DNA of 22,756 bases from Chitinivibrionales bacterium. Lineage in GTDB: Bacteria > Fibrobacterota > Chitinivibrionia > Chitinivibrionales > WJKA01. Positions 3,494 to 20,091 of this stretch are shown here, piece by piece; within the stretch, counting starts at the first letter, position 1, and each line of letters starts with the position of its first letter. The DNA lies in contig JBEPYC010000019.1 in the NCBI GenBank assembly GCA_041641555.1, forward strand, positions 1 to 22,756. The letters run 5' to 3'. The notes below the pieces were generated by a model. That model was not told where the DNA came from. It did no database searches and worked only from the letters and a program-made list of their open reading frames with translations. Both the position numbers and the translations under genes were made by a program.

Positions 3494-5365
3494 TCACTCT
3501 TTCTCAGGCGATCTGCCACTCCAGGAGATTATATAGGTGTCTTCTTCACGCTTGGTCTTGACCTCAAATCCTGAATTGTAGAACACCGAGAGCATTCCCT
3601 GATTCTTTGCAAGTACATTGGCCTCGAAACCGGAGACATCGCGTGCCTTTCCTGCCTTGACGAGCAGATCGAGAAGATAGGAGCCAATTTTTCTGGACTG
3701 CCAATCATCACGTACCAGAAAAGAGACCTCGGCTTTGTTATTGGTTTCGTTGAGATAGTACCTTCCAACACCGACAATGTGCTCTCCACCGGTCTCCTGA
3801 GTCACCGCAACAATCGCCATGTCTTTGCTGTAATCGACATTGGTGAACTCCTGGATGAAACGATGGGGAAACGCCTTGATTGGCTTGAAAAACCGGAATG
3901 CGATCGATCGCTCCGAACACATGTAAAGCATGTCTCGAAGCATCTTTTCGTCGGTGGGTTTCATCGGCCGAAAGAGTATTTCGGTACCATCGGGCAACGG
4001 TGCCCGTGTCTCGACATTCTTGGGGTATTTACTCGATTTCGGAGGCAGTACTTTCTGGTCCGCAAAAATATAGTTGCGCTTTTTGGCCTCTTTGAGGATT
4101 TCTCCTCTGAAATCCGGATGGGCGATTTCTGCCAGGGCAATGACCCGCTCCCGAATCGACTTGCCAAAGAGATAGGCGACCCCATATTCGGTGACCACAT
4201 AATGCACATCTCCCCGCGTAGTCACCACGCCGGCACCTTCAGTCAGCGTAGGGACGATCCGTGAAATGGAACCACCCTTGGCGGTCGAAGGAAGCGCGAT
4301 GATCGGCTTGCCTTCACGGGCCCGTGCTGCACCTCGGTTGAAATCGACCTGCCCCCCGATGCCGCTGTAAAAATCATACCCGATCGAATCCGAACACACC
4401 TGGCCGGTCATATCGACTTCTAAAGCAGTATTGATTGCAACCATACGGTTATGCTGACTGATCACAAACGGATCGTTCACGTATTCCGATGGCCGAAATT
4501 CAAACATCTGGTTCTCATGAAGGTATTCGTAGAGACGGTGGGTGCCGTAACAAAAACTGGCGGTAACCTTTCCACGGTTGATCGTTTTCTTCCGCCCGTT
4601 GATTACCCCCTTTTCGATCAAGGGGATGATCGCGTCGTTGAACATCTCTGTGTGAATGCCGATATCGTTTTTGTCGGCCAGATACTTCAGGACGGCTTGC
4701 GGAATGTTCCCGATTCCGACCTCCACAGTCGACCCGTCTTCAACCAATCCCGCTACATTCTGGGCAATTGCTTCGACCGTTTCATCGGGCTCTGGCACCG
4801 TAAACTCGACAATGTCCCGCTTGGTTTCGACGATAGCATCGATCATGTCGACCGGTATCACCGCATCTCCGAGTGTACGGGGCATATTCTCGTTTACCTC
4901 GGCGATGATCATCAGGCTGTTTTCGGCCGCGGATTTGACGATATCCACAGATATGCCCAGACTCAGATATCCGTTTTTGTCCGGGGGACTCGTCTGCACC
5001 AGGGCTACATCCAGCGGCACCTTCCCGGTCTTGAAAAGCTTCGGGATCTCGGAAAGGAAAATGGGGGTATAGTCGCCCCGCCCCTGCACGATTCCTTCGC
5101 GTACATTGGCTGCGAGAAAAAAGCTGAAGGTGCGGAATTTTTTGCTGTGTTCCTCATTAATGTAAGGAGCTATTCCCTGTGTCAGCAGGTGGTAGATCTC
5201 GGCATCGACAATTTCGTTGTTTCCGCTCACCAGTTCATCGACCAGAGTTTGCGGAACTCCACACCCGGTACCGATAAAAATGCGCGGTCCGCCGGGCTTG
5301 ATCGACCGAATGGCCTCAGTCGCCGATTTCACTTTACTTTTATAGAGTTCTTCCCATGAAGCCAT
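3494..5365 (-). CDS. Acetyl-CoA hydrolase/transferase-family (4-hydroxybutyrate/succinyl-CoA:acetate CoA-transferase-like) domain fused to a C-terminal Pat-type GNAT acetyltransferase domain
   Basis: 623 aa with an ATG start. The N-terminal ~430 aa (MASWEELYKSKVKSATEAIRSIKPGGPRIFIGTGCGVPQTLVDEL...) is typical of the AcetylCoA_hydro/transferase family. The C-terminal ~170 aa, encoded at the low-coordinate end (about 3494..4010), has GNAT features: ...RSIAFRFF..., ...MAIVAV..., ...AEVSFLVRDDWQSRKIG..., ...NVLAKNQGM.... These resemble the GNAT domain of protein acetyltransferase Pat. The gene lies 4 bp downstream of the ACD gene on the same strand. Confidence 0.85.
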   Translation of the reverse strand: MASWEELYKSKVKSATEAIRSIKPGGPRIFIGTGCGVPQTLVDELVSGNNEIVDAEIYHLLTQGIAPYINEEHSKKFRTFSFFLAANVREGIVQGRGDYTPIFLSEIPKLFKTGKVPLDVALVQTSPPDKNGYLSLGISVDIVKSAAENSLMIIAEVNENMPRTLGDAVIPVDMIDAIVETKRDIVEFTVPEPDETVEAIAQNVAGLVEDGSTVEVGIGNIPQAVLKYLADKNDIGIHTEMFNDAIIPLIEKGVINGRKKTINRGKVTASFCYGTHRLYEYLHENQMFEFRPSEYVNDPFVISQHNRMVAINTALEVDMTGQVCSDSIGYDFYSGIGGQVDFNRGAARAREGKPIIALPSTAKGGSISRIVPTLTEGAGVVTTRGDVHYVVTEYGVAYLFGKSIRERVIALAEIAHPDFRGEILKEAKKRNYIFADQKVLPPKSSKYPKNVETRAPLPDGTEILFRPMKPTDEKMLRDMLYMCSERSIAFRFFKPIKAFPHRFIQEFTNVDYSKDMAIVAVTQETGGEHIVGVGRYYLNETNNKAEVSFLVRDDWQSRKIGSYLLDLLVKAGKARDVSGFEANVLAKNQGMLSVFYNSGFEVKTKREEDTYIISWSGRSPEKE

Positions 5366-5368
5366 AGT

Positions 5369-7528
5369 TTAGGCCTTCCCTTTCGAGATAATAATGCGGG
5401 CATCAACAACAAATGCACCGTCGCCTTCGTATCCGACTTTGAGTGGATTGATATCGATCTCGTCGATTTCCGGAAAATCAAGTGATAGCTGCGACATTCG
5501 CATGAGATTATCGACGATGGCACCGATATCGACTCCTCGCTGTCCCCGCGCTCCAGTCAGTAACTTATACGACTTGGTACGGCGAATCATGCTCATACAT
5601 TCTTCCTCGGTAACCGGGGCGAGCGAGAATGTTACGTCTTTGAGCACCTCCACAAAAATGCCTCCCAGACCAAACATAAGCATTGGCCCGAACTGCGGAT
5701 CCTTTTTCATCCCCAGGATAACCTCTTTGCCTCCGCCAACCATCTTCTCGATGAGCACTCCACGCAATTCCGCATCGGGCTTCTTTCGTTTTACTCGAAG
5801 CATCATAAGTTCAAAGGCATCCTCGACAGCAGAGCGCTTCTCCAGACCAATCCGCACTCCACCCACATCGGATTTGTGAAGAATGTCCGGACTCGAGATT
5901 TTCATGGCAAGGGGGTAGCCAAGTTGCTCGCCGGCCTGTGCGGCGGTTTCAACCGATGTTGCAACCATGGCCGGGGGAAGCACAAAGTTGTAAGCACTCA
6001 TGATTGTCTTGGCATCGATTTCGCCAATCTCGTGCATACCCCGACTGCGGTAGGCCTTGATAATTTTTGTCACCGGATTCTTGTTCACCGCGAAACGCTC
6101 GACTGCCCGCCGCGGTCGCGAGCGATAATCGGCGTACTTGACCATTTCGAACATCGACTTGGCAGCTCGATCGGGTATGGGGTATTGAGGGATATTGTTT
6201 TCCTGAAGAACCTCGACGCCTTCAGCGACGGCATCGGCGCCCATAAAACAGGCAAGGATTGGTTTCTCCGAGGTCGAACTCAGCTCGACAATCGCCTCGG
6301 CAGTCTCTTTTGTCTCGGTCATCTTCTGCGGTGTCAAAATCACGATCACCCCATCGACTCCCTCATCCTGAAGCGCCAATTCAATGGCGGCCTTGTAACG
6401 ATCCCTCCCCGCATCGCCCAGAACATCCACCGGATTGCTCCATGATGCAGCCGGGGGTAGCACTGCAGAAAGCTTTTCGGCAGTTGTGTCGGCGAGTGCA
6501 GCCACTTTCAGGCCGGCCATCTCCAAAGCATCGGACATCATGATTCCGGGGCCGCCGGCATTGGTGATAACCGCTATCCGGTTACCTTTGGGCACCGGTT
6601 GATACGACAATGCGGTCGAAATGTCGAACAGATGTTCGATCGATTGCGCGCGAATCACGCCCGAGCGCTGAAATGCAGATTCATAGGCTGCATCGGCTCC
6701 CGCCAGACTACCGGTATGCGACGAAGCCGCACGGGCACCGGCGCTTGTTCGACCTGATTTGAGTATAACCACCGGCTTGCTTCTGGAAACCTCTTCGGCG
6801 GTACGCATGAAATCCTGCCCGTTGGAAATATCTTCGAGATAGGCAGCTATTACCCTGGTATGCGGATCCTTGTGAAGCACTTTCAGAAAGTCGACCTCAT
6901 CGACAGCTGCCTTGTTTCCTACCGAAGCCACCACCGAGAACCCGAGGTGAATCGAGCGAGCCCAGTCCTGCATTGCAGTGATCAATGCCCCGGACTGGGA
7001 GACGATTGCCACTCCTCCAGGGTGCCCCAGCTGCTGTCCGAATGCAGCATTGAGTTTTGACCATGGATTGAGAAGCCCCAGGCAATTCGGTCCGAGAACG
7101 GTTATCCGCTTCTGCCGCGCAAGCTGGATAATTTCCTTTTGAAGCCGTTTTCCGGTTTCATCACTCTCTCCAAAACCAGCGGTGATTATGATTGCAGCTT
7201 TTACACCCTTTTCGGCGCTCTGCTGAAGAGTTTTGAGGACGGCTTCGCGCTTGATCACCAGCACAACCAAATCGAGCTGCCCCGGGATATCCGAAACCGA
7301 TTTGTAGCAAGTCAACCCGAGAATCTTGTCTTCTTTCGGATTGACCGGATAGATGTCTCCCTCGAAACCCCCATCGATAATATTGGCAAGTATTGAATTG
7401 CCGACTTTTATGGGATTTGCTGAAGCGCCGACGACGGCAACAGAGTGGGGAGATAGTAGTTTCTCGAAGCTCATAAACGATTCCCCGATCACAGAAAGAG
7501 TGGCGGAATGAAACTCAGAAAAATACAT
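5369..7528 (-). CDS. ADP-forming acyl-CoA synthetase (acetate--CoA ligase [ADP-forming], fused alpha/beta; NDP-forming ACD family)
   Basis: 719 aa. The N-terminal CoA-binding Rossmann region is ...LLSPHSVAVVGASANPIKVGN.... The phosphohistidine-loop-like motif SSHTGSLAG is present. The C-terminal half resembles an ATP-grasp domain. The first ATG is at 7528, but the conserved N-terminus MSFEKLLSPHSVAVVGAS suggests the true start may be the ATG at 7474. Confidence 0.9.
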   Translation of the reverse strand: MYFSEFHSATLSVIGESFMSFEKLLSPHSVAVVGASANPIKVGNSILANIIDGGFEGDIYPVNPKEDKILGLTCYKSVSDIPGQLDLVVLVIKREAVLKTLQQSAEKGVKAAIIITAGFGESDETGKRLQKEIIQLARQKRITVLGPNCLGLLNPWSKLNAAFGQQLGHPGGVAIVSQSGALITAMQDWARSIHLGFSVVASVGNKAAVDEVDFLKVLHKDPHTRVIAAYLEDISNGQDFMRTAEEVSRSKPVVILKSGRTSAGARAASSHTGSLAGADAAYESAFQRSGVIRAQSIEHLFDISTALSYQPVPKGNRIAVITNAGGPGIMMSDALEMAGLKVAALADTTAEKLSAVLPPAASWSNPVDVLGDAGRDRYKAAIELALQDEGVDGVIVILTPQKMTETKETAEAIVELSSTSEKPILACFMGADAVAEGVEVLQENNIPQYPIPDRAAKSMFEMVKYADYRSRPRRAVERFAVNKNPVTKIIKAYRSRGMHEIGEIDAKTIMSAYNFVLPPAMVATSVETAAQAGEQLGYPLAMKISSPDILHKSDVGGVRIGLEKRSAVEDAFELMMLRVKRKKPDAELRGVLIEKMVGGGKEVILGMKKDPQFGPMLMFGLGGIFVEVLKDVTFSLAPVTEEECMSMIRRTKSYKLLTGARGQRGVDIGAIVDNLMRMSQLSLDFPEIDEIDINPLKVGYEGDGAFVVDARIIISKGKA

Positions 7529-7846: not shown

Positions 7847-9217
7847 CTAGATTGCTCGTCCCCACTTCAATGCATTTTTATGAACGCTAAAATTGATACC
7901 CGATTGCACATATTCGTATCCGCGCGAGCAAAACGGCACCATCGTGAGCCGGCATGAAACCGGTTTGAACCTCTCCATGGCAATCCTGGGCAGCAGGCTT
8001 TTTCTGGCATTTGAGCAGGAAGACAGTACCAGCGGTACACTCTCGAAAGCTTCGGCGGCCGAGAGGGTTACCGGATAGGTTCTCTCACCCGATGACCGGC
8101 TATCCTTTGTGCTGCGAAGCTGAGCGATGGTGAGGGCTCCTGCTATGCGAAGAAAGATTCGGGGCGCAATTTTAAAGGCAGGTATCCAGATGTCGGCAGA
8201 GCGATTCTTCATTGCAGGTGTAACCATGCGCGGCACATTCAATTCCTGGATCAGATCAGCAAAAGAATCGAGCCTCAGCGATTCACCTTTGACCGCTATT
8301 CGCCAGAAAGGTAACCACATGGCATCGCCGGAGTCCCCGCCTTCGGCGAATGAAATCCGGGTCCTGACGAGTCTGCCATATTGCGCGGCCCACCCTACCC
8401 CGCACCGGGAGCAAGGCAACACCATCGACACTGTTGTCCCTTCAAGACTCCATCCGCAATCAGGGCAGAGCGTAGGGACGAACCGAACGCCTTCCTGAGC
8501 AGTGTCTCTGGCTTCACTCCCGAAATCGATCGGATCACAGGAGCCGACTCGTGTTCCGGTCAGCCCGTCGTACAAGACACTTCCCTGGTAGAAATACGGC
8601 CAGTAAACCTGACTCACGATCTCCCCAATGAATGCATTAATAGTATCACCGCGCCCAGCCCCGATGCCGGAATCCCGGGCGATTGCATTGGTGACAATCT
8701 CGGCCACCCGGCGGTCGGAAGCGTTGTCGGAGCGGGCCAGCTGAGCAAATGCCGCTCTTGCGGCTCCGTCGGGGTTCTCCTGAAAATGCTCGATAGAACT
8801 GTGTGCCTTGCTGGTGATGCGGCCAAGAAAGTGTTCCAGACTCAATGTTGGTTTGAGGAAAACACCTTCGGTCTTCTGCTCAACGAACCGGGCTTTCACA
8901 GCCTGAAGACGGTACCCCAGGGAATGGGGGATCCGGAGATCCGTTCTCGCACATATTGTCCGGTCGATCAGTTTGTGCTTGCTCTGAGTAACCCCCTGCC
9001 GAAACTCAATACCCTTGAATCTCCAATAAGGAACATAAAAGGAATACGCCTGGTGTTTCTCTGCGGCGGGAACATACGAAGAGAAGTATTGCGAAGCGGT
9101 GACAATAAGCCGAACCCGACAATACGGGCAGGTGAAGACCCGATCGGACTCGGTCATCTCTACCGGTGCCCCGCATTGGGGGCACCGATGATCGAAACGG
9201 AGGTCAGATCCGTTCAC
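7847..9217 (-). CDS. Double zinc-ribbon protein of unknown function, translationally coupled to the upstream SPFH gene (possible YdjG/YdjH-like partner)
   Basis: The track ORF 7847..9412 overlaps the SPFH gene by 209 bp, which is implausible. An in-frame GTG at 9217 overlaps the upstream stop by about 11 nt, which is typical coupling. The product carries two CxxC...CxxC ribbons (CPQCGAPVEM...FTCPYC and CPDCGWSLEG...LPCSRCG) about 300 aa apart. I recognise no other domain. Confidence 0.55.
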   Translation of the reverse strand: MNGSDLRFDHRCPQCGAPVEMTESDRVFTCPYCRVRLIVTASQYFSSYVPAAEKHQAYSFYVPYWRFKGIEFRQGVTQSKHKLIDRTICARTDLRIPHSLGYRLQAVKARFVEQKTEGVFLKPTLSLEHFLGRITSKAHSSIEHFQENPDGAARAAFAQLARSDNASDRRVAEIVTNAIARDSGIGAGRGDTINAFIGEIVSQVYWPYFYQGSVLYDGLTGTRVGSCDPIDFGSEARDTAQEGVRFVPTLCPDCGWSLEGTTVSMVLPCSRCGVGWAAQYGRLVRTRISFAEGGDSGDAMWLPFWRIAVKGESLRLDSFADLIQELNVPRMVTPAMKNRSADIWIPAFKIAPRIFLRIAGALTIAQLRSTKDSRSSGERTYPVTLSAAEAFESVPLVLSSCSNARKSLLPRIAMERFKPVSCRLTMVPFCSRGYEYVQSGINFSVHKNALKWGRAI

Positions 9218-10334
9218 CGCACTGATTACAGAAAACTGAGTTAGAAAGAATATCGGCCGAGCAGTGTGGACATTTACGCGATGACTCTTTTTGCTCTGCC
9301 GGTGTTCCACAACGCACGCAGAACTTAGCATTGGGAGTAAGGTTTTTAGCGCAGTTGGTACATTTACGGAAGACGAGTATCTGATGACCGCAGTACATGC
9401 AGAAGTGTGCATTCCGCGAAAGCGAATGCCCGCAATCGGGGCAGATCTGCTGATCGGTGGTCGGCGAGGCCTCAGAGGATCTGGCCTGCGGCTGAAAATA
9501 CTGCGAGAGCATTGCCGGCATCATCATCCCAAGTCCCATCCCCATTCCCTGCCCGCTTGCGGCGGGATTATCCGCAGCTTTCTCGACAGCCATCGCCGTC
9601 TTGAGTCTGGTCAGATCCCCCAGATCCTTGAAAAGTCCCAGCTTACTCCGGTCATCGATTGCACGCTGTACTTCCTGCGGCGGTGTTATCGAATTGATAA
9701 ACATGTGGGGCATGGCAAGACCAAACCGGGCCAGGTCTTGTTGCAATCGTTGCTGAAGTCCTTTTGAAAGCTCGGCGTAGGTCCCCGGCAGGTTGAAAAT
9801 CGAGTCCAGGTGCTCTCCAAGATGATCGTTGAGCCTCGAAACCAACAGGTCGCTGAAATACTCGGTAATGTCCATGGTGGATAGCGACGGGACAGTTCCC
9901 ACGATACTGTTTACGAAGAGAAGTGGCTGAACCACCTGCACGGTGAATTGCCCAAACGCACGAATACGGATGAGGCCAAGCTCGGAATCCTTGAATGCAA
10001 CCGGGTGACGGGTTCCCCATTTCCACCCGGTGAAAACCTTCATGTTGACATAGTACACTTCGGCGCGAAGCGGGCTGGTGAATCCCCATGGAATTGCCAT
10101 GATTTTGTTGAGCACCGGAATGTTACCCGTTTTGAGAGTATGACGTCCCGGTCCGAAGACCTGGATCGCTTTCCCATTATAGAAAAAAACCCCCACCTGA
10201 CTTTCCCTGACAACCAGTTGCGCTCCAAACTTGATCTCCCCTGAGCCTTTCTCGGGGATTCGGTGGACCATCTCCTCTCCGGTAGGATCGAACCACTCGA
10301 TCATTTCGAGAAAAACGGCGTTGTTTTTACCCAT
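9204..10334 (-). CDS. SPFH/band-7 (stomatin-prohibitin-flotillin) family protein of the YdjI/COG4260 type with a C-terminal triple zinc ribbon
   Basis: 376 aa. The N-terminus is MIEWFDPTGEEMVHRIPEKGSGEIKFGAQLVVRESQVGVFFYNGKAIQVFGPGRHTL...AEVYYVNMKVF, characteristic of the virion-core-protein-like SPFH family. A Gly/Met-rich linker (GQGMGMGLGMMMP) follows. Three C-terminal CxxC-x10-12-CxxC zinc ribbons are present. AGGA lies 7 nt upstream of the ATG. Confidence 0.85.
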   Translation of the reverse strand: MGKNNAVFLEMIEWFDPTGEEMVHRIPEKGSGEIKFGAQLVVRESQVGVFFYNGKAIQVFGPGRHTLKTGNIPVLNKIMAIPWGFTSPLRAEVYYVNMKVFTGWKWGTRHPVAFKDSELGLIRIRAFGQFTVQVVQPLLFVNSIVGTVPSLSTMDITEYFSDLLVSRLNDHLGEHLDSIFNLPGTYAELSKGLQQRLQQDLARFGLAMPHMFINSITPPQEVQRAIDDRSKLGLFKDLGDLTRLKTAMAVEKAADNPAASGQGMGMGLGMMMPAMLSQYFQPQARSSEASPTTDQQICPDCGHSLSRNAHFCMYCGHQILVFRKCTNCAKNLTPNAKFCVRCGTPAEQKESSRKCPHCSADILSNSVFCNQCGERI

Positions 10335-10435: not shown

Positions 10436-11812
10436 GTGAGAAACATATTATTTATCATGATAGCCCAAACCTTTGCCCGAACTGGAACGGTTGATGTGAA
10501 CTCAGGCCCGAAAAACTCGAATGTCGATCTAAAAAAGCTGCTCAGGGTTTTCCGTCAGAAAGACCGATATCTTCCAATTGCACCCGTCGGCCAGGGCGGG
10601 ATAGCCGATATCGTAAGCGCGTTCGACCGCCGCCTCAATCGGGTGGTCGCCATCAAGGAACTGCGAGCCGACAGCGCCAAAGATGAACGTCTGGTCCGCA
10701 TGTTTCTTACTGAGGCAAAACTCGTTGGGTATTTGGATCATCCGGGAGTCATCCCGGTGTTCGATGCCTTCCTTCGGAAGAGAAACCGTCTCTGCTATAC
10801 GATGAAACTTCTGGAAGGAAAGCCCCTGACAACGCTGATCAAGTCTCAGAGAAGCATTGGTCCGGCCCCCAATGAACAGAATAGTTTCCTGGAAATCTTC
10901 ATTCGCCTCTGCGAAACGATGGCCTACGTGCATGACCGGGGTGTTGTCCACCTGGACCTCAAACCCGACAATATCATGGTCGGTACGTACGGTGAAGTCA
11001 TGATCATGGATTGGGGAAACGCACACCTTTTCGACAAAGAACCCTACCGCAGGCATTTCGGGGCACATGCCTATGACATGCACCTGCTCTCGTCAACGGA
11101 TATCGAAAAAGGGGTTGTGGTTGGTACTCCACTGTACATGTCACCGGAGCAGACAAGAGATACCCTCGACAGTCTTCGTCCGCAATCGGACATTTTCTCT
11201 CTGGGTGTTATTCTGTACGAAATGATGACCGGCACGATGCCTTTTACCGGGGAGACCTTCAAAGAGCTCTCGGACGGTATCCGCACACACTTCCCGTATC
11301 CGCTCCACGAACTCAACCCGGACATTCCACGAAGGCTGTCCACGATTTGCGACAGGATGATGACCAAGGAGCCAGACCGTCGATTCTCATCCTGCCAGGA
11401 AGTGCTCTCCGAAATTGCCGACTACCGAAATTCCGGGCAAGCATTTTCATCGGAGAGTTTTCTTCCCGGTGAAGCGATATTCGAAGAAGGCGATCCCGGC
11501 AACTTTTCATTTGTCATACTTTCGGGGAAAGTCGAAATCACCAAAAAATCCGGTGGGAAAACCACGGTCCTGGCCTGCCTCGGCAAAGGAGAGGTTGTCG
11601 GCGAGCTCGCCATTCTCACCGGCACGCCCCGCTCGGCAACCGCCCGCGCAGTGGTACCTACTCTAATACGCGTCATGGGGAGTGAAGAAATCGAGAAAGA
11701 ACTGGAGAAGCTCTCTCCGTGGGTAGGTCAGATGATAACCGGCCTTTCCCATCGGTTTCTTGCCCAGAACGAGCGTATCATCGAACTTCAACGAAGAGAC
11801 AGAGAACAGTGA
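10436..11812 (+). CDS. Hanks-type Ser/Thr protein kinase fused to a C-terminal cyclic-nucleotide-binding (CNB/cNMP) domain
   Basis: 458 aa. The kinase shows a Gly-rich loop GQGGIADI, VAIKEL with the Lys, a catalytic loop HLDLKPDN (HLD rather than HRD), DWG in place of DFG, and YMSPEQ as the APE-like motif. The C-terminal CNB domain shows FEEGDPGNFSFVILSGKVEI, GELAIL and the phosphate-binding cassette PRSATARA. The start is GTG at 10436, or alternatively the ATG at 10457. Confidence 0.85.
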   Translation: MRNILFIMIAQTFARTGTVDVNSGPKNSNVDLKKLLRVFRQKDRYLPIAPVGQGGIADIVSAFDRRLNRVVAIKELRADSAKDERLVRMFLTEAKLVGYLDHPGVIPVFDAFLRKRNRLCYTMKLLEGKPLTTLIKSQRSIGPAPNEQNSFLEIFIRLCETMAYVHDRGVVHLDLKPDNIMVGTYGEVMIMDWGNAHLFDKEPYRRHFGAHAYDMHLLSSTDIEKGVVVGTPLYMSPEQTRDTLDSLRPQSDIFSLGVILYEMMTGTMPFTGETFKELSDGIRTHFPYPLHELNPDIPRRLSTICDRMMTKEPDRRFSSCQEVLSEIADYRNSGQAFSSESFLPGEAIFEEGDPGNFSFVILSGKVEITKKSGGKTTVLACLGKGEVVGELAILTGTPRSATARAVVPTLIRVMGSEEIEKELEKLSPWVGQMITGLSHRFLAQNERIIELQRRDREQ

Positions 11813-11816
11813 AATG

Positions 11817-13307
11817 TCACAACCTGCGCTGGAGGGCTTGCACAACGGTTTTCATCGCTTTTATTCTCGCAAACGGTTTGTCATTGGCTTCTACAATGGT
11901 CCATGGCGCATAGGTCGTACTCGTTTTCAGTAACATTTCTTCGACCGCCGCACTGTAGTCTTCCCATTTCTCCCGGTTGCGCCAGTCCTCATCGGTGATT
12001 TTCCACTGTTTGTGCGGTGTTCTCTGGCGAGCCTCGAAACGCCGCAACTGTTCGGCTTGATCTATTTGAAGCCAGAATTTTATCACCACCGCCCCAAAAT
12101 CACACCACTGTTGCTCGGTTTCATTTATTTCCCGATAGGCCCGAGACCACTGCTCTTCCGAGCAGAAGCCTTCCACGCGCTCCACCAGCACCCGACCATA
12201 CCAGGAACGGTCAAAGACAGTGATATGCCCGGCTTTTGGAAGAACGCGCCAGAACCGCCACATATAATGATGATCCTTTTCCTCCTGGGTGGGTGCCGCA
12301 AACGGAACGACCTCATAGCCGCGTGGATCCATTCCCTGTACGAGCCGCCGAATGTTTCCGCCTTTGCCGGCAGCATCCCAGCCCTCATACACGATGATCA
12401 CCGGCACTCTCTTGAGAAAGACTTCGTGTTCCAGTTCCAGCAGCCGTTTGCCAAGTTTTTTACTCGCGGAACTATATCGGTCTCGCGGGAGGTTCTCTGA
12501 AAGATCCACACTGTTGAGGATCGAAGTACTCAGATCCAGGGGGCCGGCAGACTCCTTTACCGGAGCGTCATGATGACCCTCTTTTCCCTGCGAGTTCGAC
12601 CCGGCGATCCGCCTCTCCAATGCATCGATAAGCGTGGTCAACATTTTGATGGTGGCAAATTTTTTGTCATGTGCCTCGATAACGGTCCACGGTGCCCATT
12701 CCGTGCCCGTCCTTTCCAGCATCTCTTCGAAGGCTCTGTAATAAAGGTTGTACTGCCGGTGATGACGTTTGTCATCGGAGGTAACTTTCCATGCCGTGGA
12801 TTTATTGGCCAGCAGCTTTTCGAACCTCTTTTTCTGCTCCTTTTTGTCGATATGAAGCAGAAATTTCACCAGCACGATCTGATCGTCGGAGAGATGTCTC
12901 TCGAAAGAATTGATGTCCGAGTACGCCTGCGTCCATTCCTCTTTGGGCACGATCTCATCCACGCGCTCCACCAGCACTTTGCCATACCAGCTCCGATCGA
13001 AAATTGCCAACCTGCCGCGGGCCGGGGTGCGAATCCAAAACCGCCAGAGCCATGGCCGGAGTCTTTCTTCCTGCGTGGGAGCGTTGGTCGGGTATACCTT
13101 GAAGCCGCGCGGATCCAGCGCAAGGATGAGGTTATTGATCAGCGTGCCTTTTCCAGCAGCATCCCATCCCTCGAAAACAACTACCACCGGAATTTTCAGT
13201 TTCCGGGCATCTCGTTGCAGCTTGCCTATTCTTCGCTCCAGCTCGCCGATAAGGCTTTTGTACTCGCTCTTTGGCAGCTTTCGATTGAGATCGATCTTCT
13301 CAAGCAT
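11817..13307 (-). CDS. Two-domain polyphosphate kinase 2 (class II PPK2 / polyphosphate:AMP phosphotransferase-like)
   Basis: Two tandem PPK2 domains each have a Walker A motif (VVVVFEGWDAAGKGTLIN and VIIVYEGWDAAGKGGNIRR) plus DRSWY and lid motifs. The track start at 13385 is TTG. I prefer the ATG at 13307 (MLEKIDLNRKLPKSEYKS...), which is preceded by the strong Shine-Dalgarno aggaggg with a 5-nt spacer. Confidence 0.9.
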   Translation of the reverse strand: MLEKIDLNRKLPKSEYKSLIGELERRIGKLQRDARKLKIPVVVVFEGWDAAGKGTLINNLILALDPRGFKVYPTNAPTQEERLRPWLWRFWIRTPARGRLAIFDRSWYGKVLVERVDEIVPKEEWTQAYSDINSFERHLSDDQIVLVKFLLHIDKKEQKKRFEKLLANKSTAWKVTSDDKRHHRQYNLYYRAFEEMLERTGTEWAPWTVIEAHDKKFATIKMLTTLIDALERRIAGSNSQGKEGHHDAPVKESAGPLDLSTSILNSVDLSENLPRDRYSSASKKLGKRLLELEHEVFLKRVPVIIVYEGWDAAGKGGNIRRLVQGMDPRGYEVVPFAAPTQEEKDHHYMWRFWRVLPKAGHITVFDRSWYGRVLVERVEGFCSEEQWSRAYREINETEQQWCDFGAVVIKFWLQIDQAEQLRRFEARQRTPHKQWKITDEDWRNREKWEDYSAAVEEMLLKTSTTYAPWTIVEANDKPFARIKAMKTVVQALQRRL

Positions 13308-13562
13308 TCGTCCCTCCTGGTGATAAAGGCCCCTCGTGCCAAAGTTACCTCTTTCAAGAACCCGGTCTGAACCTCTGTGCTCCAATAATCACCGAAAGTA
13401 CTTGTAATCACGAAGTGCCAATCGGCAAAATCGAAAACATAAGTGAAGCTTCGATGCAGAGGCTCGGTGGCTGGCATCTGTGTTTTGGTACTTGCAATGG
13501 AGATAACGCAGACACCATGCCTAAAAATATAACGGCCTTGCGGGAAACCAATATGAGGCGGG

Positions 13563-14783
13563 ATGAGTTGGCGCCCGGTTCCCGGGAGGTGTATATTAGA
13601 ACATACGGCTCATCTCCCAATTCATGCGAACCTTATGCAGTTTGATCCCTATCCGATAACCAACAGTCTTCCCAGTGCCGCCTCCTTTCATCCAATGACG
13701 GTGCTTATCGTCGATGATGAATGGGCGATCAGAGAAGTGCTGCAGAAGGCCCTGTCGCAAGCAGGGTATGTATGCCATATTGCCGAGTCGGCTGAGCAAG
13801 CTCTGGAAATCTTCCGAAAAATCCATGTGGATATCCTGGTGACAGATATCAAAATGTCGGGCATGGATGGCATTCAGCTCATCAGAAAAATCCGCGAGAC
13901 ACATGACACCAGCAGCATAGTAATGACCGGGTACCAGTCCCGTTTCTCGTACGAAGATGTTGTCGGAGTAGGTGCAAGCGATTTTGTGGGAAAACCGGTA
14001 ACACCAAACGAGTTACTCGTCCGCGTCCGGCGGATTGCCCGTGAGCGCCGGATTCTCAAAGAGCGAAACCGAAAGCACGAGGCCCTTCATGAGACATTCA
14101 AAAAACTGCGGCATGCCTATCACGATACGATCAACCGGCTGATCCGGGCTTCTCAATTCAAAGATGAAGACACTGGCGATCACGTCATGCGTATCGGACG
14201 ATTCAGTGCGCTCCTGGCGCAACACTCGGGTATGACTAACGCTGCGATTTCCAACATATTCTACGCCGCTCCCATGCACGATGTCGGCAAGATTGGGATA
14301 CCCGACAGCATTCTTCTCAAACCGGGTAAACTTTCGGACGAAGAGTTCGAGATAATGAAACGGCACACGCTGATCGGTGGATCGATTCTCCAGAGCCCGA
14401 AGTCTGATATATTAGAGATGGCCAGGGAAATAGCGTTAACTCACCACGAGCAGTGGGATGGGAAAGGTTATCCGCAGGGGATGGGGGGAAAACAGATCCC
14501 GCTTCCAGGAAGAATCGTAAAGTTGGCCGACGTATTCGATGCGCTCACCTCTCCACGTCCGTACAAGGAACCGTACCCCGTCGATGTCGCTATGGAGATA
14601 ATAATAAAGGAACGAGGACGCCATTTCGACCCCGACCTTGTCGATCTTTTCCTGTCGGTCCAGGATGAGATTTTCGAGATCAAGCGGAATGAAGGCGGAC
14701 TGCGCGAAGGTGAGCGTGATACGTTCCTCTGGAGTGAACGCGACCTGGGCTATCTTCCGTCCATCCTAAAGAAAAAAGAGTGA
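13563..14783 (+). CDS. Response regulator with receiver domain and HD-GYP domain (RpfG-like c-di-GMP phosphodiesterase)
   Basis: The receiver is MTVLIVDDEWAIREVLQ...ILVTDIKMSGMDG...KPV. The HD-GYP domain carries HDVGKIGIPD and HHEQWDGKGYPQG. The receiver begins at M45, so the true start is probably the ATG at 13695. No histidine kinase is adjacent. Confidence 0.9.
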   Translation: MSWRPVPGRCILEHTAHLPIHANLMQFDPYPITNSLPSAASFHPMTVLIVDDEWAIREVLQKALSQAGYVCHIAESAEQALEIFRKIHVDILVTDIKMSGMDGIQLIRKIRETHDTSSIVMTGYQSRFSYEDVVGVGASDFVGKPVTPNELLVRVRRIARERRILKERNRKHEALHETFKKLRHAYHDTINRLIRASQFKDEDTGDHVMRIGRFSALLAQHSGMTNAAISNIFYAAPMHDVGKIGIPDSILLKPGKLSDEEFEIMKRHTLIGGSILQSPKSDILEMAREIALTHHEQWDGKGYPQGMGGKQIPLPGRIVKLADVFDALTSPRPYKEPYPVDVAMEIIIKERGRHFDPDLVDLFLSVQDEIFEIKRNEGGLREGERDTFLWSERDLGYLPSILKKKE

Positions 14784-17640: not shown

Positions 17641-20091
17641 ATGAAATGCGTAATTGTCGGTGGAGTAGCGGGTGGGGCCAGTGCTGCGGCACGGCTCCGA
17701 CGCCTTGATGAATCAGCGGAAATAGTCCTGTTCGAACGTGGCCCTCACATTTCATTTGCCAATTGTGGTCTTCCATACTACATAGGTGGTGTTATAAGCG
17801 AGAGGGAAAACCTCCTGGTCGTGAAACCGGAACTGATGAAAAACCGGTTCAATATCGATGTGCGGGTTTCATCGGAAGTCGTTTCGATCGACCGAGAAAA
17901 AAAGGAAGTCAACGTACATGACCTCCACAACGACCGTCACTACACAGAGTCCTACGATAAGTTAATTCTTTCTCCTGGTGCCTCACCCATACGTCCGCCT
18001 CTCCCCGGAATCGGATCATCCAAGATCTATACACTCCGCAATATTCCCGATACCGATGCTATCGTGGGTGCGGTGGAAAAAGAATCTGTCCGCAAAGCAG
18101 TTGTCGTTGGTGGGGGGTTTATTGGCCTCGAGATGGCAGAGAACCTTCACCGAAAAGGGATTCAGGTCACATTGGTCGAAATGGCACCGCAGGTCATGGC
18201 GCCGCTTGATTTTGAGATGGCCTCTATTGTTCATCAGCATCTGCACATAAAGAATATTGAATTCTACCTCGGCGACGCCGTTACCGAGTTTGTGGAAACC
18301 GGCGATACCTTGACTACGGTACTGACCAGTGGTAGAAAGATCAATGCAAACATGGTCATCCTGGCAATCGGGGTGAAACCCGAAGTTCATCTGGCCAAAG
18401 AAGCAGGGCTGGAGACCGGACGTGGTATTCGCGTGTCGGCATCGATGCAGACCAGTGATCCGGATATTTTTGCGGTCGGCGATGCGGTTGAAGTTACCGA
18501 TTTTATATCGGGGAAACCGACGGTAATACCGCTTGCCTGGCCCGCCAACAAACAGGGGCGAGTGGCTGCCGACACGATCGGGGGAATAGAGTCCAGCTAC
18601 AAAGGGACTCAGGGAACCGCGATCGCCAAGGTTTTCGACCTCACGGTTGCATCGACGGGGCTTAACGAGAAACAGCTCAAGGACCTGGGCATCGGTTATC
18701 AAAAATCATTTACCCACTCGGCCAACCATGCGGGGTATTATCCCGGCGCGATCCCGATGTCGATCAAGCTGCTTTTTTCTCCCGAGAACGGCAAGCTCTA
18801 TGGCGCACAGATCGTGGGGATCAAAGGTGCCGATAAGAGAATCGATGTGCTGGCCACAGCAATTCGGGCAGGCATGTCGGTGTTTGACCTCGAAGAGCTC
18901 GAACTTGCTTACGCTCCCCCCTATTCTTCGGCCAAGGACCCGGTCATTATGGCGGGATTCGTGGCATCCAACGTGCTGAGGGACCGCGTCAAGGTTGTTC
19001 ACTGGCACGATCTGGATCAGATTACGAAATCAAAGGCCTTTCTTCTCGATGTACGCACCCCCGAGGAATTCAGTTTGGGGCACATCGAAACGGCGGTAAA
19101 TATACCGATCGATGAATTGCGGGGACGAACCGGGGAGATCCCCAAAGGCAAACCGGTGTATGTTTATTGTCAGATCGGGCTCCGTGGCTATGTCGCCTGC
19201 CGCATGCTCGACCAGCTCGGATACGATACGTACAATCTCAGTGGCGGATACAAAACATACCATTTCACTTCTCTGGAACAATCCAACGAAGACGTCTACG
19301 AGAATGACCAGGTAACGCTGAGCGATAATATCATAGCCTCCGGGGGAGAACAGACTGACGGTGAAGCCGACAAAACGATCGATGCCTCCGGGCTTCAGTG
19401 CCCGGGACCGATCATGCAGCTTTACAATGCCATCAAAACCATGCAGCCCCATCAGACGGTTCAGATTTCGGCTACCGATCCGGGGTTTGCCATAGACCTG
19501 AAATCCTGGTGCGAACGAACCGGCAACAAGCTTCTCTCGATGAAAAACGAAGAAGGGGTAACAACTGCCTGGATACGCAAAGCAGCATACGAGAAAGAGG
19601 CATCTGAATCACGAACCAACCTCGATGGTAAGACCATGGTGCTTTTCAGTGGAGATTTCGATCGGGCCATGGCGGCAATGATTATCGCCAACACATCGGC
19701 AAGCATGGGTAAGAAGGTCTCGATATTTTTCACTTTCTGGGGTCTCAATCTCCTTCGGAAAGACTCCCCCGTACGTGTAGATAAAAACGCGATCGAAAAG
19801 ATGTTCTCTTTCATGATGCCGCGAGGTGCAAAAAAATTCACCCTCTCCAAAATGAACATGATGGGTGCGGGGACGGCCATGATGAAAGGAATCATGAAGA
19901 AAAAGCAGGTCACATCCCTGGAAGATCTGATGCAGCAGGCATTGGATAATGGCGTGCGGTTTATCGCTTGCCAGATGACCATGGACCTGATGGGAATAAA
20001 AAAGGAAGAACTGATCGATGGTATCGAATTCGGCGGTGCTGCTACTTATGTCAGCACTACCGATACAGCCACGATGAATCTGTTTATCTAA
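17641..20091 (+). CDS. Four-domain fusion of CoA-disulfide reductase (CoADR/Nox family) with rhodanese, TusA-like and DsrE/DsrF-like domains (CoA-persulfide / persulfide reductase type)
   Basis: 816 aa. The FAD-binding N-terminus is MKCVIVGGVAGGASAAARL, with the redox-active Cys42 in SFANCGLPYY. A second Rossmann motif is VVVGGGFIGLE. The rhodanese domain has the active-site loop VYVYCQIGLRG. The TusA-like domain has the CPGP motif (GLQCPGPIMQ). The C-terminal DsrE/DsrF-like domain reads MVLFSGDFDRAMAAMIIAN...FIACQMTMDLMG. The Shine-Dalgarno sequence is ggggaagag. Confidence 0.9.
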   Translation: MKCVIVGGVAGGASAAARLRRLDESAEIVLFERGPHISFANCGLPYYIGGVISERENLLVVKPELMKNRFNIDVRVSSEVVSIDREKKEVNVHDLHNDRHYTESYDKLILSPGASPIRPPLPGIGSSKIYTLRNIPDTDAIVGAVEKESVRKAVVVGGGFIGLEMAENLHRKGIQVTLVEMAPQVMAPLDFEMASIVHQHLHIKNIEFYLGDAVTEFVETGDTLTTVLTSGRKINANMVILAIGVKPEVHLAKEAGLETGRGIRVSASMQTSDPDIFAVGDAVEVTDFISGKPTVIPLAWPANKQGRVAADTIGGIESSYKGTQGTAIAKVFDLTVASTGLNEKQLKDLGIGYQKSFTHSANHAGYYPGAIPMSIKLLFSPENGKLYGAQIVGIKGADKRIDVLATAIRAGMSVFDLEELELAYAPPYSSAKDPVIMAGFVASNVLRDRVKVVHWHDLDQITKSKAFLLDVRTPEEFSLGHIETAVNIPIDELRGRTGEIPKGKPVYVYCQIGLRGYVACRMLDQLGYDTYNLSGGYKTYHFTSLEQSNEDVYENDQVTLSDNIIASGGEQTDGEADKTIDASGLQCPGPIMQLYNAIKTMQPHQTVQISATDPGFAIDLKSWCERTGNKLLSMKNEEGVTTAWIRKAAYEKEASESRTNLDGKTMVLFSGDFDRAMAAMIIANTSASMGKKVSIFFTFWGLNLLRKDSPVRVDKNAIEKMFSFMMPRGAKKFTLSKMNMMGAGTAMMKGIMKKKQVTSLEDLMQQALDNGVRFIACQMTMDLMGIKKEELIDGIEFGGAATYVSTTDTATMNLFI

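Follow-up and report, generated by a model that had tools for sequence, protein, structure and literature searches.

Can a bacterial Ser/Thr kinase be switched directly by a cyclic nucleotide? The question is raised by a gene in a contig of a Chitinivibrionales bacterium (Fibrobacterota; GenBank assembly GCA_041641555.1, contig JBEPYC010000019.1, positions 1–22,756), the whole of this 22,756-nucleotide stretch being referred to here as the window. The open reading frame (ORF), on the plus strand at 10436–11812 in its longest reading, encodes a Hanks-type Ser/Thr kinase domain followed by a cyclic nucleotide-binding (CNB) domain, and a sequence-only reading, made without database searches, had proposed that its product is a kinase gated directly by cyclic nucleotides. 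A Ser/Thr kinase regulated by cyclic nucleoside monophosphates (cNMPs) through a mechanism other than that of PKA is the explanation that fits the protein best, and on the comparisons of sequence and predicted structure set out below we consider it probable.

Searching 5.8 billion proteins produced, among 8000 candidates, 1714 matches at E ≤ 1e-10, and the conservation counts used throughout refer to the query together with the best 120 of these 1714 matches, taken as clusters at 90% identity. All 120 carry both a Pkinase and a cNMP_binding domain; they are 411–493 residues long and 42–74% identical to the query. Since at least 120 clusters share this architecture, a figure that is a lower bound on the size of the family, the kinase–CNB fusion is, as judged from its homologues, a sizeable conserved family and no rarity of one genome. 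Proteins with several CNB domains dominated a representative-library search made with the CNB part alone, and a word-index search with the junction plus CNB segment yielded 5 fragments out of 109 candidates. The named sources belong to Verrucomicrobiales/Verrucomicrobiota and to Chitinispirillia and Chitinivibrionales of the Fibrobacterota, and a genome scan agrees with this distribution. The view taken in the sequence-only reading, that a CNB domain placed C-terminal to a bacterial Hanks kinase is uncommon, therefore needs qualifying, both by the number of these clusters and by a second, unrelated family that is described below.

The kinase domain and its relatives

The kinase domain spans aa 50–324 (10583–11407, plus strand), as delimited by Pfam. 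It matches Pkinase (PF00069) with an E value of 1.6e-40, scoring 139.6 bits where the cut-off is 31.7, and the best sequence match of this part in the PDB is the kinase domain of PknB from M. tuberculosis (3.8e-33). The fold in an AlphaFold2 (AF2) model superposes on that of PknB (5u94) with a template modelling score of 0.91 and a root mean square deviation of 2.1 Å. In a residue-level alignment with PknB, HLD falls on HRD, DWG on DFG and SPE on SPE, so that the substitutions are in register; this match of motif to motif, together with the alignment of 121 sequences, disposes of the concern in the sequence-only reading that they might be frame artefacts.

The residues expected of a working kinase are retained, K74, E93, D174, N179, D192, E238, D252 and R316 being kept in 119–121 of the 121 aligned sequences. 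The VAIK motif (aa 71–74, 10646–10657) supplies the ATP-anchoring Lys74 which, like its salt-bridge partner Glu93, is found in all 121. The glycine-rich loop GQGGIADI (aa 52–59, 10589–10612) conserves G52, G54 and G55, with Ala or Ser at the third canonical Gly, as in PknB. In the catalytic loop HLDLKPDN (aa 172–179, 10949–10972), Leu173 stands in place of the HRD Arg in 120 of 121 sequences, with the catalytic Asp174 and Asn179 present, and the Trp of DWG occurs in all 121. The essential Lys, the catalytic Asp and the metal-binding Asp noted from the sequence are thus near-invariant, and the replacements of the HRD Arg by Leu, which makes this a non-RD kinase, and of the DFG Phe by Trp both hold as family traits. 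The SPE motif, whose Ser is found in 112 of 121 sequences, had also been counted as non-canonical; that does not stand, as PknB has SPE too and the motif is ordinary in bacterial Hanks kinases.

The activation segment, from DWG (aa 192–194) to SPE (aa 236–238; 11009–11149 overall), is longer than that of PknB by ~18 residues, an insert that is specific to the family and in which P203, Y204 and Y/H207 are conserved. No Thr was found in the alignment at the positions equivalent to pT171 and pT173 of PknB, and the GT(P) P+1 loop is preceded, a few residues earlier, by a conserved acidic column (Glu in 89 and Asp in 10 of the 121). Because the HRD Arg and the DFG Phe are regulatory or structural and not catalytic, these alignments leave the protein within the Hanks superfamily, as a non-RD DWG subtype. 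From the near-invariance of its catalytic residues across the 121 sequences, the kinase looks catalytically competent.

It might be argued instead that phosphotransfer has been lost through HLD, DWG and the insert, leaving a pseudokinase or scaffold that signals by conformation only. The departures from HRD and DFG and the ~18-residue insertion in the activation segment would fit such a protein, but the Lys, the αC Glu, the catalytic Asp, the Asn, the metal-binding Asp, the Glu of the APE motif and the Arg of subdomain XI are all near-invariant, and DWG does not prevent activity in CK2, nor does non-RD status in many kinases. Described bacterial pseudokinase families lose the Lys and/or the Asp residues (bioRxiv 10.1101/2025.01.12.632604). 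We regard a pseudokinase as very improbable.

The protein shares with PknB the SPE motif and a GxGG(M/I)(S/A) glycine loop, but PknB is a membrane receptor with PASTA domains, HRD, DFG and phosphorylation at Thr171/Thr173, whereas the query is predicted to be soluble and has HLD/DWG, the insert and no equivalent Thr. No transmembrane segment was found, the maximum over 19-residue Kyte–Doolittle windows being 1.33, and Pfam and NCBIfam profile searches found no PASTA or other additional domain, in agreement with the sequence-only reading. The score against the PASTA kinase model Stk1/PknB (NF033483) is 200.2 bits for a cut-off of 450 which, with the lack of PASTA and transmembrane regions, places the protein outside that group. 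The best NCBIfam match of the kinase domain is to chlamydial PknD (NF009651), and here too the protein falls outside the family, with 218 bits against 839 and an alignment to profile positions 3–292 of 932, the kinase domain only.

DWG and YTMK also occur in PknD-like kinases from the PVC group, Lentisphaerae and myxobacteria; unlike the query, those without a CNB domain are membrane proteins, in which the C-terminal part is an FGE-sulfatase, an LRR or another module. Such non-CNB relatives (from Victivallaceae, Lentisphaeria and Polyangiaceae) are 750–1100 residues long and 30–35% identical to the query, and they have both YTMK and GEVMIMDWG(L/N)A in common with it while keeping HRD or HCD. 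Since these relatives also have DWG, the comparison indicates that DWG belongs to a broader PknD-like clade and that loss of the Arg, giving HLD, marks the CNB-fused family. A distant metagenomic member, L031, combines HCD/DWG with the same truncated CNB junction. Outside bacteria, CK2α has DWG instead of DFG (PMC11097362). As a eukaryotic CMGC kinase with HRD and without a CNB domain, CK2α offers a mechanistic analogy only.

The kinase domain also attracts models built for phage defence. The PADLOC models PD-T4-6 and mad6 match it (best 1.2e-62), and the NCBIfam models MADS6 and PglW match partially, which would be compatible with a defence kinase of the PD-T4-6 or Mad6 type, acting against phages as a single gene. 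The PADLOC matches cover only the generic kinase domain, however, and the NCBIfam scores are far under their cut-offs (MAD6 110.6 against 460, and 61.3 against 990 for the other partial match). There are no other defence genes nearby, and the loci of the family lie among housekeeping genes such as those for tRNA synthetases, RecO and SMC. A role in defence seems to us extremely improbable.

The CNB domain and its junction with the kinase

The CNB β-barrel (aa 340–424, 11453–11707) matches cNMP_binding (PF00027) with an E value of 7.9e-21 and 74.3 bits, against a cut-off of 27.5, and the best PDB sequence matches of this part of the protein are the CNB domains of PKG and PKA-R. Its phosphate-binding cassette, GELAILTGTPRSATARA (aa 389–405, 11600–11650), has G389, E390 and R399 in all 121 sequences and the same spacing as the PKA/PKG consensus (PMC2246266). 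After R399, position 400 is Thr in 77 and Ser in 31 of the 121 (S400 in the query), A401 is found in 120 and T402 in 109; the Gly of the β2–β3 loop, G352, is found in 117. The cassette Arg and the β2–β3 Gly mark true cNMP binders (PMC2246266). Near-invariance of these residues makes the pocket look competent for cNMPs, and the conservation of the pocket and of the kinase catalytic residues alike indicates purifying selection. The sequence-only reading had described an in-frame, complete CNB domain with a canonical cassette, and had raised the possibility that the residues needed for contact with the cyclic nucleotide would prove missing on careful alignment. They are present, and the frame and the cassette stand as described; the domain itself is not complete, as its N-terminal helical motif (N3A) is absent.

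CNB folds with altered cassettes bind haem, chlorophenols and 2-oxoglutarate (PMC2246266), and the domain might accordingly sense, in the manner of CooA, CprK, NtcA or Clp-type proteins, some ligand other than cAMP or cGMP, be it another nucleotide, a metabolite or cyclic di-GMP (c-di-GMP). NtcA and FtrB models match the CNB part weakly, and a gene of the HD-GYP (c-di-GMP phosphodiesterase) type lies nearby. Against this, the cassette is fully canonical, with its Gly-Glu pair and Arg conserved throughout at PKA/PKG spacing, whereas non-cNMP families typically lose the cassette Arg (PMC2246266), and it is PKG and PKA-R that match best. A different ligand is therefore quite improbable in our judgement.

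The manner in which the two domains are joined is unusual. The AF2 model, made for a 451-residue form with an alignment of 89 sequences, has a mean predicted local distance difference test (pLDDT) score of 90.6 and a predicted template modelling (pTM) score of 0.80, and shows the two domains as one compact unit; a fold search of the PDB with it returned matches to the kinase domain only and no two-domain analogue. In the model, kinase helix αI occupies residues 313–325 and the CNB strands residues 331–408, the first of them starting at 331, so that ~5 residues (NSGQA) separate αI from the barrel. Helices at 409–417 and 421–450 correspond to the αB/αC hinge and lid, the second being a single helix of 30 residues. 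The junction motif SGQAF (aa 333–337, 11432–11446) is conserved across the family, and αI runs straight into the first CNB strand. No N3A helical motif was found ahead of the barrel in the family alignment, in the AF2 model or by comparison with a second kinase–CNB family which does have N3A, and relative to which the query family shows a gap of ~34 residues at the junction.

This second family came from a metagenome scan with the family alignment, in which the matches listed were mostly other kinases at 26–38% identity. Its members (L036 8001–9158, L052 7408–8517, L056 7008–8117, L063 8001–9158, L068 3146–4303 and L088 3403–4587) encode soluble Hanks kinases of 436–543 residues and resemble the query in domain order, in overall size and in having a canonical cassette, for example GEASYVPGAKRTAT, in the C-terminal CNB domain. 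They differ from it in having HRD, DFG and SPE without the activation-loop insert, a linker ~34 residues longer with a typical N3A, and a different C-helix, and they are 26–29% identical to it. By these differences the second family is probably an independent fusion. Kinase-then-CNB fusions thus exist, on the sequences compared, in at least two forms, of which the N3A-less junction is specific to the lineage of the query.

The C-terminal stretch ELEKLSPWVGxMIxxLSxRFIxLN is among the best-conserved of the whole protein and shows a hydrophobic 3–4 repeat; within the helix that corresponds to the αC/lid region (SPWVGxMIxxLSxRFxxxN..., 11714–11809), W429, V430, M433, I434, L437, R440, F441 and L444 are near-invariant with 3–4 spacing. 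Structures of PKA and PKG align with the barrel only, whereas CNB domains of the CRP/NtcA type align on through this helix.

These features raise the prospect that the CNB domain binds a cNMP without gating anything, and serves for ligand-dependent dimerisation, localisation or substrate recruitment of a constitutively active kinase, with the C-helix dimers of CRP-type proteins as the model. The length of the C-terminal helix (30 residues in AF2), its 3–4 hydrophobic repeat and its alignment with CRP/NtcA-type helices beyond the point at which PKA and PKG stop would all suit such a module. DWG and non-RD status would likewise suit a constitutively active core, and a pseudosubstrate would not fit into so short a linker. 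The tight, conserved fusion seen at SGQAF and in the pTM of 0.80 suggests direct mechanical coupling, however, and since dimerisation itself activates PknB-type kinases, this explanation overlaps with that of a cNMP-regulated kinase. On balance we think a purely dimerising module unlikely.

A cNMP-regulated kinase of this design is comparable with several known systems. PKG of animals and apicomplexans also has sensor and kinase on one polypeptide and a near-identical cassette pattern, with GELAILTGTPRSATARA in the query and GELALLYNDPRTATVIA as the PKG consensus (PMC2246266). The order is reversed, though, with the kinase of the query first and its CNB domain C-terminal; there is one CNB domain in place of the two to four of PKG, no N-terminal dimerisation or pseudosubstrate segment and no N3A; and the kinase is PknB/PknD-like and non-RD with DWG, whereas that of PKG is an AGC kinase. 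These comparisons place the query outside the AGC cyclic nucleotide-dependent kinases PKA and PKG, and make it analogous to PKG at most. With PKA it shares Ser/Thr kinase activity, as predicted, and the same cassette chemistry, in which the Glu contacts the ribose 2′-OH and the Arg the phosphate, and PKA RIα is among the top matches of its CNB domain. The PKA sensor is however a separate subunit, which acts as inhibitor by way of an inhibitor sequence and comes off with cyclic AMP (cAMP), whereas the two domains of the query are tightly fused through ~5 linker residues. Within bacteria, mycobacterial Pat (CNB plus GNAT) and Bdellovibrio Bd1971 (CNB plus EAL) are precedents for regulation of an enzyme by cAMP through a fused CNB domain (PMC6717892). 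Both Pat (NF058543) and Bd1971 (6hq3, 6hq5) match the CNB part of the query; their outputs are an acetyltransferase and a c-di-GMP phosphodiesterase, respectively, and their CNB domains are N-terminal, with N-terminal helices of their own.

A possible route from ligand to kinase

How might a cyclic nucleotide act on such a kinase? The core would sit in an active-like state without phosphorylation of the activation loop, since there is no RD arginine that would need neutralising, DWG is present as in CK2α, the phospho-Thr sites of PknB have no Thr here and the family has a conserved acidic residue in their stead. CK2α is itself constitutively active without activation-loop phosphorylation. Control would then come from the CNB domain, where a cyclic nucleotide would bind the canonical cassette (E390, R399, S400) and reposition the αB/αC lid helix, with the invariant W429 as the candidate cap over the base. 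Kinase αI would stand in for N3A, and the movement caused by the ligand would be passed rigidly to the C-lobe of the kinase; alternatively or additionally, it would alter dimerisation mediated by the C-helix and so switch kinase activity. Rigid transmission to the C-lobe or to a dimer is suggested by the replacement of N3A by αI and by the start of the barrel ~5 residues after this helix. As cyclic GMP (cGMP) is rare in bacteria, cAMP is probably the likelier ligand of the two, on priors. In addition, the query has Ala, as part of a column in which Ala occurs in 111 of 121 sequences, at the position that we tentatively take to match the β5 Arg of CNB-B in PKG I. What is inferred in this scheme is the direction of coupling, W429 as the base cap and cAMP as the preferred ligand.

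Several observations weigh against this scheme or parts of it. The query has Ile at the column that is acidic in most of the family, with E224 adjoining it, and a Ser or Thr after the cassette Arg fits cAMP and cGMP alike. Non-RD status is compatible with activation-loop phosphorylation, as exemplified by EFR, a non-RD kinase that does make use of it (PMC8463890); the statement in the sequence-only reading that non-RD kinases are usually not regulated in this way holds as a tendency and not as a rule. Neither an adenylate nor a guanylate cyclase was found in the Pfam gene tables of the 22.7 kb window or of 9 related loci. Our search of the literature found no characterised bacterial kinase–CNB protein, only generic mentions (PMC2246266 Table 1; PMC11032199).

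Those mentions are brief. Bacterial CNB domains attached to kinases were listed generically in 2007 (PMC2246266), and the CNB has been described as an accessory domain common to eukaryotic Ser/Thr/Tyr kinases and the Ser/Thr kinases (STKs) of a dataset centred on Planctomycetota (PMC11032199). A preprint presenting an atlas of bacterial STKs does not mention cNMP, cyclic nucleotide, DWG or non-RD. Going beyond regulation by cNMPs as such, we tentatively suggest, as an idea that may well prove wrong, that the family represents a prokaryotic lineage of cyclic nucleotide-dependent kinases that is independent of PKA and PKG and differs from them in its allosteric design, in which DWG and loss of the RD Arg hold the core on, a truncated CNB domain with αI in place of N3A is the sole switch, and PPK2 may, in some lineages, connect the kinase to polyphosphate or adenylate metabolism. 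On that view it would be the first direct pathway from cAMP (or cGMP) to Ser/Thr phosphorylation shown in bacteria.

Bacterial cAMP signalling is known mainly through transcription factors of the CRP type and a few fused enzymes (Pat, Bd1971), and what is known of bacterial Hanks kinases concerns chiefly membrane receptors that loop phosphorylation activates. A conserved soluble cNMP-gated kinase, if that is what the protein is, would join the two in Verrucomicrobiota and Fibrobacterota, and would offer an independently evolved counterpart of PKG in which to study the control of kinases by CNB domains. Databases already show this combination of domains, and the predicted function follows largely from domain composition. 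The family is nevertheless well defined, by its at least 120 clusters, its HLD/DWG signature and a confident model, so that the hypothesis is open to tests with recombinant protein.

The locus and its neighbours

Three start codons compete for the gene. The longest reading runs from GTG at 10436 to a TGA stop at 11810–11812 and gives 458 residues; ATG at 10457 is the start in the NCBI annotation (P0001, 451 aa), and GTG at 10496 would give 438 residues, which fits the N-termini of family homologues. The first 20 residues of the longest ORF (window 10436–10498) are unconserved even against the 74%-identical relative, and the pLDDT is below 50 over the first ten residues of the 451-residue form. 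Which of the three is used is uncertain, and the annotated ATG may lie too far upstream. Promoter and terminator predictions near the gene were no more numerous than in shuffled sequence.

Downstream, at 11817–13385 on the minus strand, lies a gene for a two-domain (class II) PPK2, a polyphosphate:AMP phosphotransferase, with PF03976 matched in 2 stretches and a TIGR03708 score of 686.8 bits against a cut-off of 547.65. It is convergent with the kinase gene, with exactly 4 bp (AATG) between the stop codons, just as had been read from the sequence. Beyond it, at 13563–14783 on the plus strand, is a separately transcribed response regulator with REC and HD_5 domains, HD at aa 239 and GYP at aa 302. 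It had been described as an orphan HD-GYP regulator, and indeed Pfam detects no histidine kinase in the 22.7 kb window. The gene upstream of the kinase, which encodes an SPFH/zinc-ribbon protein, is divergent. With a divergent gene upstream and PPK2 convergent, the kinase gene is monocistronic in the window.

Does this neighbourhood tell us anything about function? A survey of 20 distinct family loci, this window included, finds the trio of kinase, convergent two-domain PPK2 and REC–HD-GYP regulator only in the window and in the relatives of 74% and 56% identity. The genes upstream differ among these three, and the spacing from stop to stop between kinase and PPK2 varies (4, 12 and 59 bp). In a member from Verrucomicrobiales with 47% identity, the kinase gene is followed after 117 bp by a co-directional gene for a single-domain PPK2 and preceded by genes for PhoU and a Na/Pi cotransporter. 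PPK2 thus stands directly beside the kinase–CNB gene in 4 of the 20 loci (the window, L111 1668–3152, L022 9371–10858 and L026 9395–10297). This amounts to two independent lineages, which differ both in the class of PPK2 and in its orientation. In the remaining 16 loci the neighbours are variable, and include tRNA synthetases, RecO, SMC, chemotaxis genes, MgtE, OmpA/TamB and others. Clustering of the neighbours at 14 loci and Pfam lists for 9 loci found no shared operon partner, whether cyclase, PP2C, FHA protein or substrate.

One could read the PPK2 adjacency as the trace of a module in which the kinase, PPK2 and the HD-GYP regulator tie the level of cyclic nucleotide to polyphosphate and adenylate metabolism, the kinase for example phosphorylating PPK2 or the regulator; this would be compatible with gating by a cNMP. 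The trio is kept in the 74% and 56% relatives although their upstream genes differ, and the Verrucomicrobiales member independently has a PPK2 neighbour, with the PhoU and Na/Pi-cotransporter genes close at hand. Chance adjacency of a PPK2 gene amounts to ~0.1–0.2% per gene by a rough, post hoc calculation, so that its occurrence in two lineages exceeds expectation, an estimate that comes from a small sample and does not of itself define a system. Against a module stand the 16 of 20 loci with neither PPK2 nor HD-GYP nearby, the lack of an operon in the window, where PPK2 is convergent and the regulator separately transcribed, and the unconserved spacing of the convergent stops. We would give such a module a rather low likelihood. 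The argument in the sequence-only reading that the neighbours speak for nucleotide signalling is correspondingly weak, as the trio occurs in one sub-clade only, 16 of 20 loci have unrelated neighbours and no linked cyclase gene was found in the window or in the 9 related loci.

Downstream of PPK2 there is a single terminator-like hairpin, and it falls within the coding sequence of the kinase (window 11694–11718, minus strand); terminators were no more frequent than in shuffled controls, and read-through antisense transcription between the kinase and PPK2 genes is possible.

In 5 of the 20 family loci a second, unrelated Hanks kinase gene is found 0.5–7.5 kb from the kinase–CNB gene (L028 1431–5540, L009 5652–6329, L007 89–517, L022 16686–17311 and L030 1–143); in L028 it encodes a 1369-residue Pkinase–WD40 protein and lies directly upstream. 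This co-location could reflect kinase-rich genomes rather than functional pairing.

Other features of the window deserve brief mention. The divergent gene upstream of the kinase (9204–10334, minus strand) encodes an SPFH/Band_7_1 protein that carries three zinc ribbons at its C-terminus. It is followed on the same strand by an ORF of 521 residues (7847–9412, minus strand), which at its longest reading overlaps it by ~200 bp and for which no family match was found other than weak ones to zinc ribbons. The two may form a two-gene module, divergent from the kinase gene. Further along the minus strand, a gene resembling that of an ADP-forming acetyl-CoA synthetase (5369–7528) is followed, after 3 bp, by one for an acetyl-CoA hydrolase/transferase that bears a GNAT acetyltransferase domain at its C-terminus (3494–5365), an arrangement that recalls the parts of a Pat-type protein acetyltransferase split over two genes. 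Proteins assigned to Chitinivibrionales, Chitinispirillum alkaliphilum and Chitinispirillaceae share 65–70% identity with the ADP-forming acetyl-CoA synthetase of the window, which tentatively points to an uncultured bacterium of the Fibrobacterota (Chitinivibrionia-like) as the source. On the plus strand, at 17641–20091, an 816-residue protein joins a CoA-disulfide-reductase-like flavoprotein (Pyr_redox_2 plus dimerisation domain) to rhodanese, TusA and DsrE-like domains, and from this composition it looks like a multi-domain protein of the sulfur-transfer or persulfide reductase type.

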